A stretch of DNA of 64,000 nucleotides. Source: a virus. Lineage: Duplodnaviria; Caudoviricetes. Both the position numbers and the translations under genes were made by a program. The DNA is taken from IMG/VR virus record IMGVR_UViG_3300049141_000098, positions 128,001-192,000 of that record; one strand, given 5' to 3'. The notes beneath the pieces are model-generated. The model saw nothing but the letters and a program-made list of their open reading frames with translations, was not told where the DNA came from and did no database searches. Of this stretch, positions 2,424 to 6,500 are shown piece after piece (positions within the stretch are counted from its first letter, which is position 1; each line of letters starts with the position of its first letter).

Positions 2424-2739
2424 GCAGACTCCGCGCTTCCTTAAGGACCTCAAGCGTCTGGATTCGCAGAGTCTGGAACGCTTCAAGCAGGTTGTTCTGG
2501 AGCAGTTCGTGCCGGACGTCGATGCCGGAACCTTCCGCAAGTCGCTGCGAGTGAAGCAGATGCAGGGCACCCCGAAGGGGCAGGTCGTCTACGAGATGAC
2601 GTGGGCCCACGACGGCCGGGCCACCTTCCAGTATGGCGAGGAGATCAAGGACGGCGTTCCGCATGTCATCTGGCGTCGCGTCGGCACCCACAGCGCGCTC
2701 AACATCGTGCCGGGCAGGATGAGCAAGTTCAGCGGTTGA
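2410..2739 (+). CDS. RelE/YafQ-superfamily toxin (putative ribosome-dependent mRNase)
   Basis: MPTFEQTPRFLKDLKRL...LRVKQMQG...YEMTWAHDGRATFQYG...HVIWRRVGTH, typical of actinobacterial RelE-like toxins. Confidence 0.75.
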   Translation: MPTFEQTPRFLKDLKRLDSQSLERFKQVVLEQFVPDVDAGTFRKSLRVKQMQGTPKGQVVYEMTWAHDGRATFQYGEEIKDGVPHVIWRRVGTHSALNIVPGRMSKFSG

Positions 2740-2895
2740 TCTGGTGTCCTGCGGAACGTGCGCCGCCGAGCATGAGGACGGGCGACGGTTTCACTGGAAT
2801 TTCATTCCTCAAAACTGCTACAGAACAGCAAAGTTCTGCGCTAGAGTTGAAGAGTCAGCCGATGAACCGAGGTTGAGCGGCGAGTCGGCTGACGT

Positions 2896-2971
2896 AGGGG
2901 TGTAGCTCAGTTGGCCAGAGCGCCGGTCTCCAAAACCGGGTCTGTCGCGAGTTCGAATCTCGCCTCCCCTG
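2896..2971 (+). tRNA. trnW: tRNA-Trp (CCA)
   Basis: Cloverleaf; anticodon arm CCGGT-CTCCAAA-ACCGG; T loop TTCGAAT; no encoded CCA end. Confidence 0.92.
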
Positions 2972-3011
2972 CTGATCCCCGGGGTGCCACCCCCGTCTCC
3001 CCGGGGATCGC

Positions 3012-3085
3012 CGGGATGTAGCGCAGCTTGGTAGCGCGTCCGCTTTGGGAGCGGAAGGCCGTGGGTTCAAATCCCGCCATCCCGA
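3012..3085 (+). tRNA. trnP: tRNA-Pro (UGG)
   Basis: Cloverleaf; TCCGC-TTTGGGA-GCGGA; T loop TTCAAAT. Confidence 0.93.
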
Positions 3086-3118
3086 CTGGCGATCAGTAAG
3101 ATCTGGTTGCTCGGCACC

Positions 3119-3214
3119 GTGCACGGCCCGCTAGCGCGGCTCATGTCCCGACATACTGGAAAGAGCGACAGCGCGGGGCAAGCCGTGAAGAGTGTGCGAA
3201 CACGGCGCACCTCT
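3119..3214 (+). ncRNA. Structured spacer RNA of unknown type
   Basis: CACGGC/GCCGTG outer stem with nested GCTC/GAGC and ATGT/ACAT helices, then GAG-GTGCG/CGCAC-CTC hairpin. Confidence 0.3.
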
Positions 3215-3232
3215 CGCCCACAACTGAACAGC

Positions 3233-3359
3233 TCTTCCGTAGTCCAGCGGCCTAAGACAGTGCGGTCGTGGGGATCGAGACCCCAGAGGTTAAAACCTCG
3301 AACCGCTTCGGCGGAATGGCCCCGACGCACTAACGCGGGTTCAAATCCCGTCGGAAGAG
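3233..3359 (+). ncRNA. tRNA-like RNA with a 61-nt three-hairpin insert in place of the anticodon loop
   Basis: Acceptor TCTTCCG/CGGAAGA, D arm, anticodon stem GTGCG/CGCAC, 4-nt variable loop, T arm GCGGG-TTCAAAT-CCCGT. Confidence 0.8.
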
Positions 3360-3367
3360 AATCACAT

Positions 3368-3447
3368 GAGGTCAGTGACGGAATTGGTAGACGTTGGTGA
3401 GGGTGCACGCCAAGCCCCTCGTGCGGGTTCGAACCCCGCCTGATCTC
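3368..3447 (+). ncRNA. Atypical tRNA-like RNA (His-like G-1:C73, distorted anticodon arm)
   Basis: Acceptor AGGTCAG/CTGATCT plus G-1:C73; D arm ACG-GAATTGGTAGA-CGT; T arm GCGGG-TTCGAAC-CCCGC; no regular 7-nt loop with U33. Confidence 0.6.
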
Positions 3448-3450
3448 CTG

Positions 3451-3508
3451 AACCCCGAGGACTCTGTCCTCTTTCTCAGGGCGTCGTCCAAGGGAGTTCT
3501 CGGGGTTT
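3451..3508 (+). terminator. Long hairpin, possible terminator or processing site
   Basis: AACCCCGAG / CTCGGGGTT followed by TT. Confidence 0.4.
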
Positions 3509-3533
3509 TCACATACAGCGAAAGGGGTGGGGT

Positions 3534-3872
3534 ATGGGTGCAGGTCACAACCTTCTGCACATCACGGTGGACAAAGAGGCAGTGCACGAGCGCTTCCCCG
3601 ATCTCGATGCCCGGATCGCCGACCACATCAAGCAGTGGCGCGACTCGGTCGAGCCGGGCACTACGGTCACCATCAACAAGATGATGAACTGCTCCAGCAC
3701 CTGTGGCTGCTCGGCCGACGGCCAGTCGACCAAGTGCACGGGCGCGGGGCACGGCATGCCAGCCGAGATCGTGTTGGGCTTGGTCTTCCCGCCCGATGGA
3801 GGCCCGTGCTCGATCGAGGGTGTGAAGGGCATCGCAGACACCACGCCGAAGCAGATCCAGCGCACCGCGTAA
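3534..3872 (+). CDS. Hypothetical protein (Cys-rich centre)
   Basis: RBS GAAAGGGGTGGGG; 112-aa ORF inside the tRNA cluster. Confidence 0.7.
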   Translation: MGAGHNLLHITVDKEAVHERFPDLDARIADHIKQWRDSVEPGTTVTINKMMNCSSTCGCSADGQSTKCTGAGHGMPAEIVLGLVFPPDGGPCSIEGVKGIADTTPKQIQRTA

Positions 3873-3960
3873 CGAACGGGGATGCCCACGTGGTAGCCCT
3901 GTCATGAGAGTGATCCGTCCGCGATTTCGAGGCAGAGGGCATTCGAATCAAGGAGGGATC

Positions 3961-4128
3961 ATGACGGAGAACAAGCTGCGCCGTACGTGTTCGCACTGCG
4001 GAGTGGTCGGTGAAGTGGGCGTCGACATCTTCTGGATTACGGACCCCTACATTGAGGAGATTGAAGGCGAGGTCGTCAAGCAGTGACTTCACGAGCATTG
4101 TGCAGATGAAATCGCTGACGAGATCTAA
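3961..4128 (+). pseudogene. Small Zn-ribbon-like phage protein interrupted by an in-frame TGA at 4084-4086
   Basis: RBS AAGGAGGG; MTENK...CSHCG...DPYIEEIEGEVVKQ-TGA-LHEHCADEIADEI-TAA in one frame. Confidence 0.6.
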
Positions 4129-4170
4129 AACTCTCCACCGGGAAGGCCGCCCCGGAACATTAGCGGCCAT

Positions 4171-4243
4171 ACCCCCGTAGCTCAGCGGATAGAGCAGACG
4201 CCTTCTAAGCGTCGGGTCGCAGGTTCAAATCCTGTCGGGGGTG
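4171..4243 (+). tRNA. trnR: tRNA-Arg (UCU)
   Basis: Cloverleaf; GACGC-CTTCTAA-GCGTC. Confidence 0.93.
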
Positions 4244-4396
4244 CGACGGTGCACGGCTCGGACTCATACTCCGCCCCGTGTATGGAGGATCAGGTGGCGG
4301 TGGGAGGTCAGCCACTACCCCAGGATCCCCTGACCCCTGGAGGCGAGTGACCTCTCCCTCCGGGGGTTCCGGTAGAACGGAAGGAGAGGAGGAAGC

Positions 4397-4777
4397 GTGG
4401 GGTGCTCTCACAGGAGTGAGGGTTTGAACTTCACTCACCGCGACGTCCCCGAAGCCGTTGCCTACGCCAAGGGGAAGTACTACACGGACGGCGTGAAGCG
4501 ATTCTTGTACTACTGCGCCAGCTTGGAATGCTACGGCCGGGATGACAATATCCATGTCGGCAGGGGCAAGCTCAGCGGTAAACTGAATCGAAGGTTGAAC
4601 GTCGACTTGGTCAACTTCTACACGCACTGGGAAACGTTCGGCACAGGGGGAAAGAAGAGGGATCTCGTGGGACTCCAGACGCGCAGGCGTCGAGCACGAG
4701 TCCTCAAGCAGCTTCCCTATCTGAGGTGGGAAGATGACGGAGGGCCGTCGAGGATAGGGCCGAAACACAGCCCGTAG
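4397..4777 (+). CDS. Hypothetical basic protein
   Basis: RBS AAGGAGAGGAGG before GTG; 126 aa. Confidence 0.5.
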   Translation: MGCSHRSEGLNFTHRDVPEAVAYAKGKYYTDGVKRFLYYCASLECYGRDDNIHVGRGKLSGKLNRRLNVDLVNFYTHWETFGTGGKKRDLVGLQTRRRRARVLKQLPYLRWEDDGGPSRIGPKHSP

Positions 4778-4793
4778 GAAAACTCAATAGCGA

Positions 4794-4866
4794 GCATCCG
4801 TAGCTCAGTTGGTAGAGCGCCTGACTCTTAATCAGGCTGTCGCTGGTTCGAGACCAGCCGGATGCA
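4794..4866 (+). tRNA. trnK: tRNA-Lys (CUU)
   Basis: Cloverleaf; CCTGA-CTCTTAA-TCAGG. Confidence 0.93.
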
Positions 4867-4973
4867 CGGGGTGGTATGCACTGCGGCAGACTTCCCCTGC
4901 AAAAGACAAGATCCGCAATTCCGGTGAGCATCCGGGTTACACCTGCTCAGGGCTGGCATCCCTAACTGCCGTG

Positions 4974-5047
4974 GGGCCTGTAGCTCAGACAGTCAGAGCG
5001 CCGGAGTGAAATCCCGGAGGTCGGTGGTGCGAAACCATCCGGGCCCA
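4974..5047 (+). tRNA. trnF: tRNA-Phe (GAA), somewhat degenerate
   Basis: Cloverleaf with loop GTGAAAT; D loop lacks GG; T loop TGCGAAA. Confidence 0.7.
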
Positions 5048-5050
5048 CAA

Positions 5051-5138
5051 GTCGGACGACGAGCCGCTAACGCTGATCTACTGTGACGGGTGGATCGCAG
5101 GCGAAGGCGGCCCCTGCGGGGAAGCGCCGTCGTCCGGC
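5051..5138 (+). ncRNA. Multi-stem structured RNA of unknown type
   Basis: 11-bp closing stem GTCGGACGACG/CGTCGTCCGGC enclosing GCCGC/GCGGC and GATCTAC/GTGGATC. Confidence 0.45.
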
Positions 5139-5159
5139 TGTCAACAATTCCATATTCAA

Positions 5160-5231
5160 TCCCCGGTAGTTCAACTGGCAGAACACCGGCCTCTGGAGTC
5201 GGGAATCCTGGTTCAAATCCAGGCTGGGGAG
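5160..5231 (+). tRNA. trnQ: tRNA-Gln (CUG)
   Basis: Cloverleaf; CCGGC-CTCTGGA-GTCGG. Confidence 0.92.
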
Positions 5232-5372
5232 CGGCCGGTAGCTCAGGTTCGAATCCTGGATCAGACTGCGGTCTGAGTAGTGTAGGGAAGCACGCCAGCA
5301 AATGGGAGGTCTGGGTTCGAGCCCCAGTCGCGGCTTCGGTCGTGATGGTGTAATTGGCAGCACGCTCATCAA
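5232..5372 (+). pseudogene. Run of tRNA fragments and a degenerate Cys-like tRNA
   Basis: TAGCTCA fused to T arm AGG-TTCGAAT-CCT; second body with CCA-GCAAA-TGG and T arm CTGGG-TTCGAGC-CCCAG; isolated 5' half GGTCGTGATGGTGTAATTGGCAGCAC. Confidence 0.5.
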
Positions 5373-5445
5373 TCCTCGATAGCTCAATTGGCAGAGTACG
5401 GCACTGTTAATGCTGGGGTTACTGGTTCGAGTCCAGTTCGGGGAG
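5373..5445 (+). tRNA. trnN: tRNA-Asn (GUU)
   Basis: Cloverleaf; CGGCA-CTGTTAA-TGCTG. Confidence 0.92.
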
Positions 5446-5540
5446 CGAGGGAGCCTTCAGGCTCACCAGGGTCAAGCGGGCCCCTGACCGTTCGAGTCGG
5501 CAGAAAAGCCCGCCCAGAACCCTTCGGAAAGGGAACGAGA

Positions 5541-5735
5541 ATGGGTGAAAGGCTTGACCGGATCAAGCGGGTTATCAACCCGCCAGTCACTGCCGAGTGG
5601 ATCGACACGGTGGTAACGCAGCGCAGCGAACAGGCCGACGAGATCGAAGAATCGAAGGGCCCGAAGGCGGCGCAGCGGCATCGCGAGAAGACCGGCAGGA
5701 TGGTAGGGAAGATGTTGCGAAGAGGCGTCATCTGA
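5541..5735 (+). CDS. Hypothetical protein
   Basis: RBS GAAAGGGAA before ATG 5541; 64 aa. Confidence 0.65.
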   Translation: MGERLDRIKRVINPPVTAEWIDTVVTQRSEQADEIEESKGPKAAQRHREKTGRMVGKMLRRGVI

Positions 5736-5742
5736 CCGACCC

Positions 5743-5860
5743 GGGCGGGTGCCAGAGCGGCCTATTGGACCGGACGCAATCCGGTTGATCCGTCTGAGCC
5801 TCGGCGTACGGCAACGAGGCTCGTCAGCGGTGATCGTGGGTTCAAATCCCACCCCGTCCA
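5743..5860 (+). ncRNA. tRNA-like RNA with 50-nt variable arm and a shrunken GCA (Cys-like) anticodon loop
   Basis: Acceptor GGGCGGG/CCCGTCC; D arm CCAG/TTGG; CCGGA-CGCAA-TCCGG; long hairpin 5786-5835; T arm GTGGG-TTCAAAT-CCCAC. Confidence 0.8.
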
Positions 5861-5886
5861 CAACGCTTGCGCCCAGGCGGAGCGAT

Positions 5887-5980
5887 ACAGCAGAGCAACA
5901 CGTGCTCGCCGTGTACGACTTGACGCATCTAGGGGACCCTCCTCTCCACTCTGCGAGAGGGTGGGGCCGACGGAAGCTGT
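5887..5980 (+). ncRNA. Possible structured RNA downstream of the tRNA cluster
   Basis: ACAGC/GCTGT closing stem with GAGC/GCTC and CCGT/ACGG inner helices. Confidence 0.25.
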
Positions 5981-6004
5981 GAACCTTCGGAAGGGATGAA
6001 GAGG

Positions 6005-6277
6005 ATGGACGCAGGGAGCCTGGACCGGCACATCACCGGGAACTGGGGAGAGGACTCTGTCGCACCGGAGTTCGTCGCAGCGCGAGAGCTGGGCGACTTC
6101 GAGGCGAGCGCCGAGGTCGTCATCGACGCCGCGCCGCAGACCGACGAGAAGTGCATCCCCGTGACGGTGGAGAAGGTGTCGATCACCTCCGGCATGGTGT
6201 ACGTGACGACGAAGGAGCTGGCCTGGCCCCTCGTCATCCCGGAGGATGACACCGTCTGGTTCGCCGACGAGAACTGA
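6005..6277 (+). CDS. Hypothetical acidic protein
   Basis: ORF with high GC3 and RBS. Confidence 0.65.
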   Translation: MDAGSLDRHITGNWGEDSVAPEFVAARELGDFEASAEVVIDAAPQTDEKCIPVTVEKVSITSGMVYVTTKELAWPLVIPEDDTVWFADEN

Positions 6278-6284
6278 TTCACCC

Positions 6285-6500
6285 GTGACTCACCTCAGTG
6301 AGGCCCTGGAGCGGCACCTCGCATCGACTCCGCGCCTTGCGGACGACCTGCCCGAACTGGTCGGGTCGCAAGAGCTGGCTGATGCCATGCTGCGCGGTCG
6401 GCATCAGGCGAATTTGTACGAGGCGACCTTGTTGGCGGCGTACTGCAAGACGTCGGTGAAGGATTTCTTCGAGCTGGACAGCACCAAGAAGGGAAACTGA
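6285..6500 (+). CDS. Small protein, possible XRE-like HTH
   Basis: GTG 6285; C-terminus ATLLAAYCKTSVKDFF resembles the end of XRE domains. Confidence 0.5.
   Translation: MTHLSEALERHLASTPRLADDLPELVGSQELADAMLRGRHQANLYEATLLAAYCKTSVKDFFELDSTKKGN

Follow-up and report, generated by a model that had tools for sequence, protein, structure and literature searches.

The 64,000-nucleotide (nt) stretch of viral DNA analysed here (hereafter the window) covers bases 128,001–192,000 of the 259,646-base-pair (bp) virus record IMGVR_UViG_3300049141_000098, which has direct terminal repeats and a G+C content of ~63%. Near its start lies a tRNA array in which five non-decoding, tRNA-shaped genes stand among seven decoding tRNA genes. 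Three of the five, elements A (3233–3360), B (3368–3447) and C (5743–5860), are open tRNA frames, and the other two, U1 (5234–5299) and U2 (5302–5369), are circularly permuted modules in tandem; all are on the plus strand. Comparison with related phages shows that selection maintains the predicted folds of C and the U1-U2 dimer. Since at least three of the mimics are thus kept in shape, they probably work as tRNA look-alikes. We consider the chances about even that the locus is a single tRNA operon, from which seven decoding tRNAs and a few small proteins are made along with five non-decoding mimics that would act through the tRNA body.

The seven decoding tRNAs (2896–5446) are exactly those named in the initial annotation, for Trp, Pro, Arg, Lys, Phe, Gln and Asn; ARAGORN and the Rfam tRNA model run with Infernal (53–72 bits) agree on all of them. 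The folds and ARAGORN also bear out its tRNA-shaped RNAs at 3233, 3368 and 5743, in which the acceptor, D and T arms are present and the anticodon region is abnormal. Like decoding tRNAs (RF00005), A, B and C have these three arms with a canonical T loop and the GG of the D loop. None of A, B, C, U1 and U2 has the 5-bp anticodon stem, 7-nt loop, U33 and purine 37 of a decoding tRNA, and U1 and U2 have no anticodon loop at all. Judging by their D arms, the three open frames are presumably of class II origin, A being Ser- or Tyr-like, B Leu-like and C Tyr-like. A reading as fragments of a phage attachment site (attP) was set aside, because the elements are whole frames and not 3' tRNA fragments.

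Twelve tRNA-type T arms occur within 3 kb of the array, versus four convincing ones in the other 257 kb of the genome, and therefore their clustering is not due to chance. Five of those in the array are additional to the tRNAs and belong to the elements that the initial annotation had flagged. The four T arms elsewhere all sit at the rsr locus, which encodes the phage's Ro60 protein.

The comparison drew on several relatives. The Ro60 protein led to G002, an IMG/VR phage of 251 kb. The small open reading frames (ORFs) of the operon led to NP, a contig of 253 kb from the Streptomyces sp. NPDC058947 assembly, and to M1, which stands for three metagenome contigs of one type; R4 is a 27.6-kb contig. 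Satis and JustBecause are cultured Streptomyces phages, which have the array order Trp-Pro-...-Lys-...-Phe-Gln-Asn in common with the window phage and also encode Ro60. These similarities, together with the NP assembly, support a Streptomyces-type host for the giant (jumbo) soil phage from which the window comes.

Element C is maintained in its fold

In element C (118 nt), the acceptor stem has 7 bp, the D arm is of class II and the T arm is canonical; a stem of 6–7 bp closes a loop of 5 nt, and the variable arm is a 50-nt structure with two stems. The D arm resembles that of bacterial tRNA-Tyr, which we take as a lead and not as a test. At 37.4 bits, C lies above the Rfam tRNA threshold under lax filters, and it alone among the odd elements clearly beats shuffled sequences in folding energy (z −3.2).

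C is present in the window, M1, R4 and G002 and missing from NP, and hence was kept in four of the five lineages, where it outlives the 64-amino-acid (aa) ORF upstream of it in G002, R4 and metagenome contigs. The copies of the window and G002 each fold into the same form independently. In the alignment of the fold, 110 of 111 cells are paired over 37 pairs, of which eight are doubly compensated, four carry a single compatible change and one is broken. Between the window and G002 there are 20 substitutions in stems, and yet 36 of the 37 pairs hold, versus 23.4 expected at random; random placement of the substitutions did not reach 36 pairs in any of 20,000 trials. The inner helix of the variable arm contributes four doubly compensated pairs, and the anticodon stem is extended by a pair that reads A-U, G-U or C-G depending on the lineage. 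The loop reads CGCAA, UGCAA or CGUAA, so that each of the four lineages has a pyrimidine followed by GNRA.

We found no published description of an element of this type, and C is the most original item of the locus. Two known identities were considered for it and rejected. As transfer-messenger RNA (tmRNA), C scores 23 bits against a threshold of 47 bits (RF00023), ARAGORN finds no tmRNA, and a tag frame ending in a stop was not seen in its 118 nt when these were read by eye. An alanine identity was suggested by G3:U70 in the window copies of B and C; it was rejected, as the relatives have G3:C70. For C, the G3:U70 pair occurs in the window copy only, with G3:C70 in M1, R4 and G002.

The permuted dimer U1-U2

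Near position 5266, the initial annotation had placed a degenerate tRNA. This is not a decayed linear tRNA, but two tandem, circularly permuted modules with sealed acceptor stems. Each module starts with one strand of the anticodon stem, followed by variable bases, the T arm and a 7-bp acceptor stem with a tetraloop; the remainder consists of two bases, the D arm, one base and the other strand of the anticodon stem. The acceptor stem is sealed by TGCG in U1 and by TTCG in U2, and the D arm of U2 is that of Y RNA heads.

Read linearly, the acceptor near 5266 pairs in 11 of 21 cells. The permuted reading gives 42 pairs, with 120 of 126 cells paired, and random placement of the substitutions yields P = 5e-5 for G002 and 2e-4 for NP. 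When U1 and U2 are treated as six units, 95% of the cells are paired and nine pairs are changed on both sides; no shuffle reaches this covariation score, and slid partners pair in at most 46% of the cells. In G002, the tetraloop of U1 is wholly different (TGCG to GACA) and its stem is kept. In U2, three pairs are doubly compensated across the three phages.

The dimer is complete in the window, G002 and NP, M1 has a fragment only, and R4 has an orphaned half of U2. This orphan offers a control for decay. It is the 3' half of U2 and is 75.6% identical to the window, compared with 90–95% for the flanking tRNAs and spacers; it thus diverges ~3 times faster than its flanks and behaves as a pseudogene. 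An origin of U1-U2 from tandem identical tRNAs was rejected, because one tRNA would need two different acceptor stems; in addition, the linear reading is unpaired and the two halves are not separated by an anticodon loop.

Elements A and B

The acceptor stem of element A is perfectly paired over 7 bp, its D arm follows the class II pattern (3-bp stem, 11-nt loop) and its T arm is normal. As the anticodon arm, the predicted fold shows a 9-bp pedestal leading to a four-way junction with three hairpins, so that a domain of ~61 nt replaces the loop. A scores below the 29-bit Rfam tRNA threshold, and the fold energies of A, B and U1-U2 are not separated from those of shuffled sequences (z −1.3 to −1.4). 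No homologue of A was found in G002, NP, M1 or R4. M1 and R4 retain just its last 11 nt, with an ORF-bearing segment in its place, and one metagenome contig joins position 3086 directly to 3350, skipping A. Structural selection on A is not supported by these comparisons; A may be a recent, dispensable variant. A reading as a group I intron was rejected: such an intron in the anticodon loop would measure at least ~200 nt and match the group I model, and the ~61-nt insert of A gives no Intron_gpI match at E ≤ 10.

Element B has an 8-bp acceptor stem (G-1:C73), a Leu-type D arm, a canonical T arm and a variable region of 10 nt. ARAGORN reports it as 'tRNA-???', reading an 8-nt loop with a four-base anticodon and without U33. 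In the most stable predicted fold, a 7-bp hairpin with a different 7-nt loop replaces this 8-nt loop. As a tRNA, the M1 copy scores 34.6 bits and the window copy stays below the 29-bit threshold. B is present in the window, M1 and R4 and absent from G002 and NP. Its identity to M1 and R4 is 96–97.5%, with 2–3 changes that are all compatible with pairing, two of them in stems. B hardly varies, and therefore the comparative test has little power; structural selection on B is weakly supported by the alignment.

The initial annotation had proposed that selection and not decay shaped the elements, and had suggested a covariation check across relatives. Run for C and U1-U2, this check yielded compensatory changes. 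Together with the decay of the U2 remnant in R4, they uphold the proposal for C and U1-U2; it does not hold for A and is weak for B. Uncompensated mismatches accumulating in all arms, which the annotation had named as the sign of simple pseudogenes, were not seen in C or U1-U2, and the matter has little to go on in B, with its 2–3 changes, and in A, which is without a homologue.

Turnover of the array and the neutral alternative

The array is a rearrangement hot spot, with a different set of elements in every genome. One may therefore ask whether the odd elements are neutral remnants of fast rearrangement, that is, pseudogenes and recombination scars. The tRNAs, ORF insertions and leftovers do vary by relative, A is unique and replaced elsewhere, and every element is dispensable in some lineage. 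G002 has even turned the 5' half of a tRNA-Met into a plain 16-bp hairpin (L017 ~3925–3990, minus strand). Neutral remnants would not be expected, however, to keep all their stems through many substitutions, as C and U1-U2 did and the U2 leftover of R4, with its divergence ~3 times faster than that of its flanks, did not; nor would the loop of C have stayed GNRA in all four lineages. For the odd elements as a group we consider neutrality improbable; for A it is the likely reading.

G002 also carries a tRNA-Met-like frame (L017 4119–4205, minus strand), in which an extended hairpin with a GCAA cap replaces the anticodon arm. Further searches added little to the set of relatives. Contigs of four rhizosphere sequencing runs gave alternative arrangements of the array only. 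DNA searches of A+B and of C against deposited phages returned nothing useful, and no relatives of a 624-aa neighbour protein were found among viral contigs. A metagenome scan with the ORF93 alignment gave one true relative, which is without tRNAs, plus matches to a short N-terminal motif.

Relation to the Ro60 and Y RNA system

The phage encodes a TROVE-domain Ro60/Rsr protein outside the window (G000 80412–82600; L002 4412–6600, minus strand), ~51 kb upstream of the tRNA array. Three tandem Y-RNA-like genes precede rsr, two of them with permuted tRNA-like heads and one with a sub-threshold match to Rfam YrlA. A GUUACUUC box and a UGGUUAACC box are common to the three genes, and the last gene is followed by a terminator. 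Chen et al. (2014, PMC4201824) described the same arrangement, with Y RNAs ahead of Ro60, in bacteria and mycobacteriophages. The UGGUUAACC box, a conserved box of the Ro60 handle, occurs three times in the genome, each time at the rsr locus, and no Ro60 handle motif was found anywhere in the window. A tRNA-Arg (TCG) near rsr (L002 7150–7221, minus strand) can be aligned to the tRNA model only if its anticodon loop is taken as irregular.

With Y RNAs of the YrlA type (RF02553), U1 and U2 share the permuted module of T arm, sealed acceptor stem and D arm. They likewise end at the side of the anticodon stem, and their D-arm sequence matches that of the Y RNA heads. In contrast to these RNAs, they lack the Ro60 handle, their 5-bp end stems are flush with the neighbouring tRNAs, and they form a head-to-tail dimer between two tRNA genes, away from rsr. 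The YrlA model (Rfam gathering score 69 bits) gives no match at 5233–5372 even at E ≤ 10. A, B and C differ from Y RNAs more fundamentally, as they have the normal open topology.

A covariance model built from U1 and U2 only gave full-length matches to Y RNA heads beside rsr at nine phage loci, with 34.8 and 32 bits in the phage itself and 28–50 bits at the eight other phage loci. As a specific detector of Y RNAs this model (R1) was rejected: junctions of tandem identical tRNA genes score 40–45 bits. Since it matches such junctions, the model shows kind, not family. It also matches a cluster of three tandem permuted modules in a bacterial genome, that of Nonomuraea sp. NPDC049758 (L124 238–635, minus strand), whose middle head shares its D-arm sequence with U2; two of the three modules give sub-threshold Rfam YrlA matches.

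On this comparison, U1 and U2 are Y-RNA-type heads without a Ro60 handle, placed in a tRNA operon. This bears on the suggestion of a candidate new RNA system in the initial annotation, which goes too far in part: the permuted modules are of the known Y-RNA-head kind (Chen et al., 2014, PMC4201824) and the phage itself has Ro60 and Y RNAs. We see in the locus a variation on known tRNA mimicry, not a category of its own.

Possible function of the mimics

If the locus is transcribed as one operon, host RNase P and 3'-end enzymes would cut the mimics from the transcript like tRNAs. The mimics would then act through their tRNA-shaped body, by occupying proteins that read the acceptor/T/D core or the long variable arm. 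Candidate targets are host tRNA-targeting toxins and defence enzymes, for example of the DUF1814/MenT-AbiEii type; another is the tRNA-surveillance machinery that may also be addressed by the phage Ro60/Y RNA system. The sealed heads would more likely engage whatever the Y RNA head engages.

As a guess, we favour a decoy role towards proteins that recognise a tRNA by its body. The actinobacterial toxin MenT3 needs the acceptor-T stem, the D/T core and the long variable arm of class II tRNA, and hardly the anticodon stem (PMC11162799). MenT3 and the abortive-infection toxin AbiEii are both members of the DUF1814 family (PMC11162799). This precedent makes the decoy idea concrete, because C keeps and enlarges the parts that MenT3 needs. 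Phage tRNAs have also been proposed or shown to counter tRNA-targeting defences (van den Berg et al., 2023, PMC10264068; Azam et al., 2024, PMC11555353). The elements described here resemble these phage tRNAs with altered anticodon loops in their location in phage arrays, in a change specific to the loop and in the putative link to defence. In contrast to the elements in our window, in which the loop is abolished, the tRNAs that escape anticodon nucleases still decode and have 7-nt loops (PMC10264068, PMC11555353).

Other clusters of non-standard tRNA-like genes, some of them non-decoding, are the irregular tRNA polycistrons and pseudo-tRNAs of Mukai et al. (2017, PMC5389517). Some of these lie in phages or beside toxin-antitoxin genes, and the authors also cite tRNA-Other of Bacillus cereus (Mukai et al., 2017, PMC5389517). 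They differ from the present elements by 8/4 and 9/3 acceptor/T branches, and have no capped anticodon stem and no giant variable arm. The tRNA cluster of phage T4 yields the species 1 and 2 RNAs, which are small, stable, co-transcribed and co-processed with tRNAs and of unassigned function. They have no sequence relation to the mimics of our phage, and they are not known to be class II frames or permuted modules.

Several points weigh against a function for the mimics as tRNA look-alikes. Every element is missing from at least one relative, hence none is essential. The comparative set is small, with 3–4 closely related lineages per element, and the alignment of C was made segment by segment from three distinct copies, by hand to fit the fold. 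The anticodon region of B never varies, so that its fold gets no test. The ORFs of the operon match no Pfam or PHROG family. The sealed modules lack a free 3' end and hence would be no decoys for 3'-end enzymes, and a single mechanism may not cover both the open and the sealed types. Finally, the case for the mimics is built on sequence comparison and predicted folds.

A bolder version holds that Streptomyces jumbo phages carry purpose-built non-decoding mimics, derived from the tRNA operon, as a new class of anti-defence RNA. Open class II frames with a capped anticodon stem and an enlarged variable arm, and handle-less heads besides, would soak up host enzymes such as toxins of the DUF1814/AbiEii-MenT type, which attack or inspect the tRNA body or the acceptor end. 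This seems to us rather unlikely.

An alternative explanation is that the elements are processing signals, with cuts by RNase P and RNase Z defining the ends of the interleaved small mRNAs. The blocks of ORFs are indeed bounded by a tRNA or tRNA-like element (B-ORF112-ORF41-Arg, Arg-ORF126-Lys, Asn-ORF64-C and C-ORF93), C always lies between ORFs in the relatives, and a weak resemblance to Rfam mascRNA occurs at 5270–5334 (19 bits; 24 bits in G002). Non-decoding tRNA shapes at mRNA borders are also known from the t-elements of plant mitochondria (PMC1920247) and from mascRNA. Such elements, however, need only the features read by RNase P and RNase Z, for which an acceptor-T minihelix is enough. 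C keeps much more structure under selection, and its D arm, capped stem and variable arm would be left unexplained. Moreover, the sealed modules are flanked by real tRNAs on both sides, a place without an ORF whose end would have to be defined. A role restricted to processing therefore has, in our view, little probability.

Possibly, the sealed dimer is part of the phage Ro60/Y RNA system, in which the extra heads would engage the same partner without binding Ro60, as a competitor or second arm. The dimer agrees in topology with the Y RNA heads, its D arm is near-identical to those of the phage's second Y RNA and the Nonomuraea cluster, and Ro60 is encoded by the window phage, G002, Satis and JustBecause. 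Against this stand the lack of a Ro60 handle, with the UGGUUAACC box confined to a locus 51 kb from the dimer, and the fact that Satis and JustBecause have Ro60 but no such dimer. The Y RNA heads themselves, moreover, have no known partner. We give this explanation a small chance only.

It is very improbable that B and C are unusual working decoders, B of the His type or with a four-base anticodon and C reading Tyr or Cys codons with a contracted loop: B does have G-1:C73, a GUG within the loop and the four-base reading by ARAGORN, and C passes the Rfam tRNA threshold and keeps GUA and A73 in G002, but U33 is missing in both, the most stable fold of B removes its 8-nt loop, the 5-nt loop of C on a 6–7-bp stem cannot present an anticodon, its middle 'anticodon' base varies (C versus U) with GNRA kept, and the discriminator varies (A or C).

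Why phages carry tRNAs is an old question, and the current answer, the replacement of tRNAs destroyed by defence systems, covers decoding tRNAs only. An operon that keeps selected, non-decoding tRNA shapes points to mimicry in phage-host conflict or RNA surveillance. For the function of the Y RNA head, the handle-less heads of this phage provide a natural way of study. Related tRNA-frame RNAs that are not annotated occur in the cultured phages Satis and JustBecause and in strain NPDC058947, and because cultured relatives carry comparable RNAs the question is open to experiment. Since tRNA finders skip such genes, the 'spacers' of actinophage tRNA arrays may hide many structured RNAs.

Layout of the operon

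On the plus strand, the array opens with tRNA-Trp (CCA; 2896–2972; Rfam 61 bits) and tRNA-Pro (TGG; 3012–3086). Elements A and B follow, and an ORF of 112 aa (3534–3872) that is conserved in all relatives and belongs to no known family. Next come tRNA-Arg (TCT; 4171–4244), an ORF of 126 aa (4397–4777), again of no known family, tRNA-Lys (CTT; 4794–4867) and tRNA-Phe (GAA; 4974–5048). The U1-U2 dimer is enclosed by tRNA-Gln (CTG; 5160–5232) and tRNA-Asn (GTT; 5373–5446). The dispensable 64-aa ORF (5541–5735) precedes C, and an ORF of 93 aa without a known family (5996–6277) lies 3' of it.

In G002, the 64-aa ORF carries a TAG in frame at the place of a CAG of the window, and the frame is conserved beyond this stop (L017 ~2435, minus strand). 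R4 and contigs from three metagenome runs have lost the ORF by deletion. In G002 it is either a decaying gene or subject to stop readthrough. RtcB and a CCA-adding enzyme were not found in the phage genome.

No terminator-like site occurs in 2600–6400, versus 2.4 expected. Ahead of the first tRNA lies a block (2812–2847, plus strand) that consists of an imperfect inverted repeat followed by TAGAGT. An alignment shows its conservation across five phages, which include the distant relatives Satis and JustBecause, and it gave no match to the sigma-70 consensus in a promoter scan. The block is probably the promoter of the operon, with an operator. The lack of a terminator and the conserved upstream block fit one transcription unit. 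Just upstream, at 2205–2739, two overlapping ORFs (72 and 109 aa) are conserved in NP, M1 and R4 and apparently absent from the stretch of G002 that was read; neither has a PHROG match, and the 109-aa ORF has no Pfam match.

The tRNA-Phe gene has unusual loops: its T loop reads TGCGAAA, with G for the near-universal U55, and its D loop is without GG. Despite these odd loops it is the best conserved tRNA of the array, with 96–99% identity in the relatives, and the D-loop GG is likewise missing from the copies of Satis and JustBecause.

Most of the spacers had been described as strongly base-paired. This applies to two of the eight, those of Trp-Pro and Phe-Gln, which beat shuffled sequences; the other six have z-scores of +1.0 to −1.9. 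The Trp-Pro spacer forms an 11-bp hairpin (2973–3011; z −3.9) that is 100% conserved in M1 and has a counterpart at the same place in Satis. A long branched hairpin fills the Phe-Gln spacer (5050–5139; z −4.4), and none of 200 shuffles folds as well.

The unannotated tRNA-frame RNAs of the cultured phages lie at L041 5530–5762 and 6431–6525 in Satis and at L046 1504–1672 and 2402–2497 in JustBecause. One type has acceptor, D and T arms around an insert of 95–160 nt, and the other is reduced to an acceptor stem and a T arm that enclose a variable core; a few compensatory changes are seen in both types.

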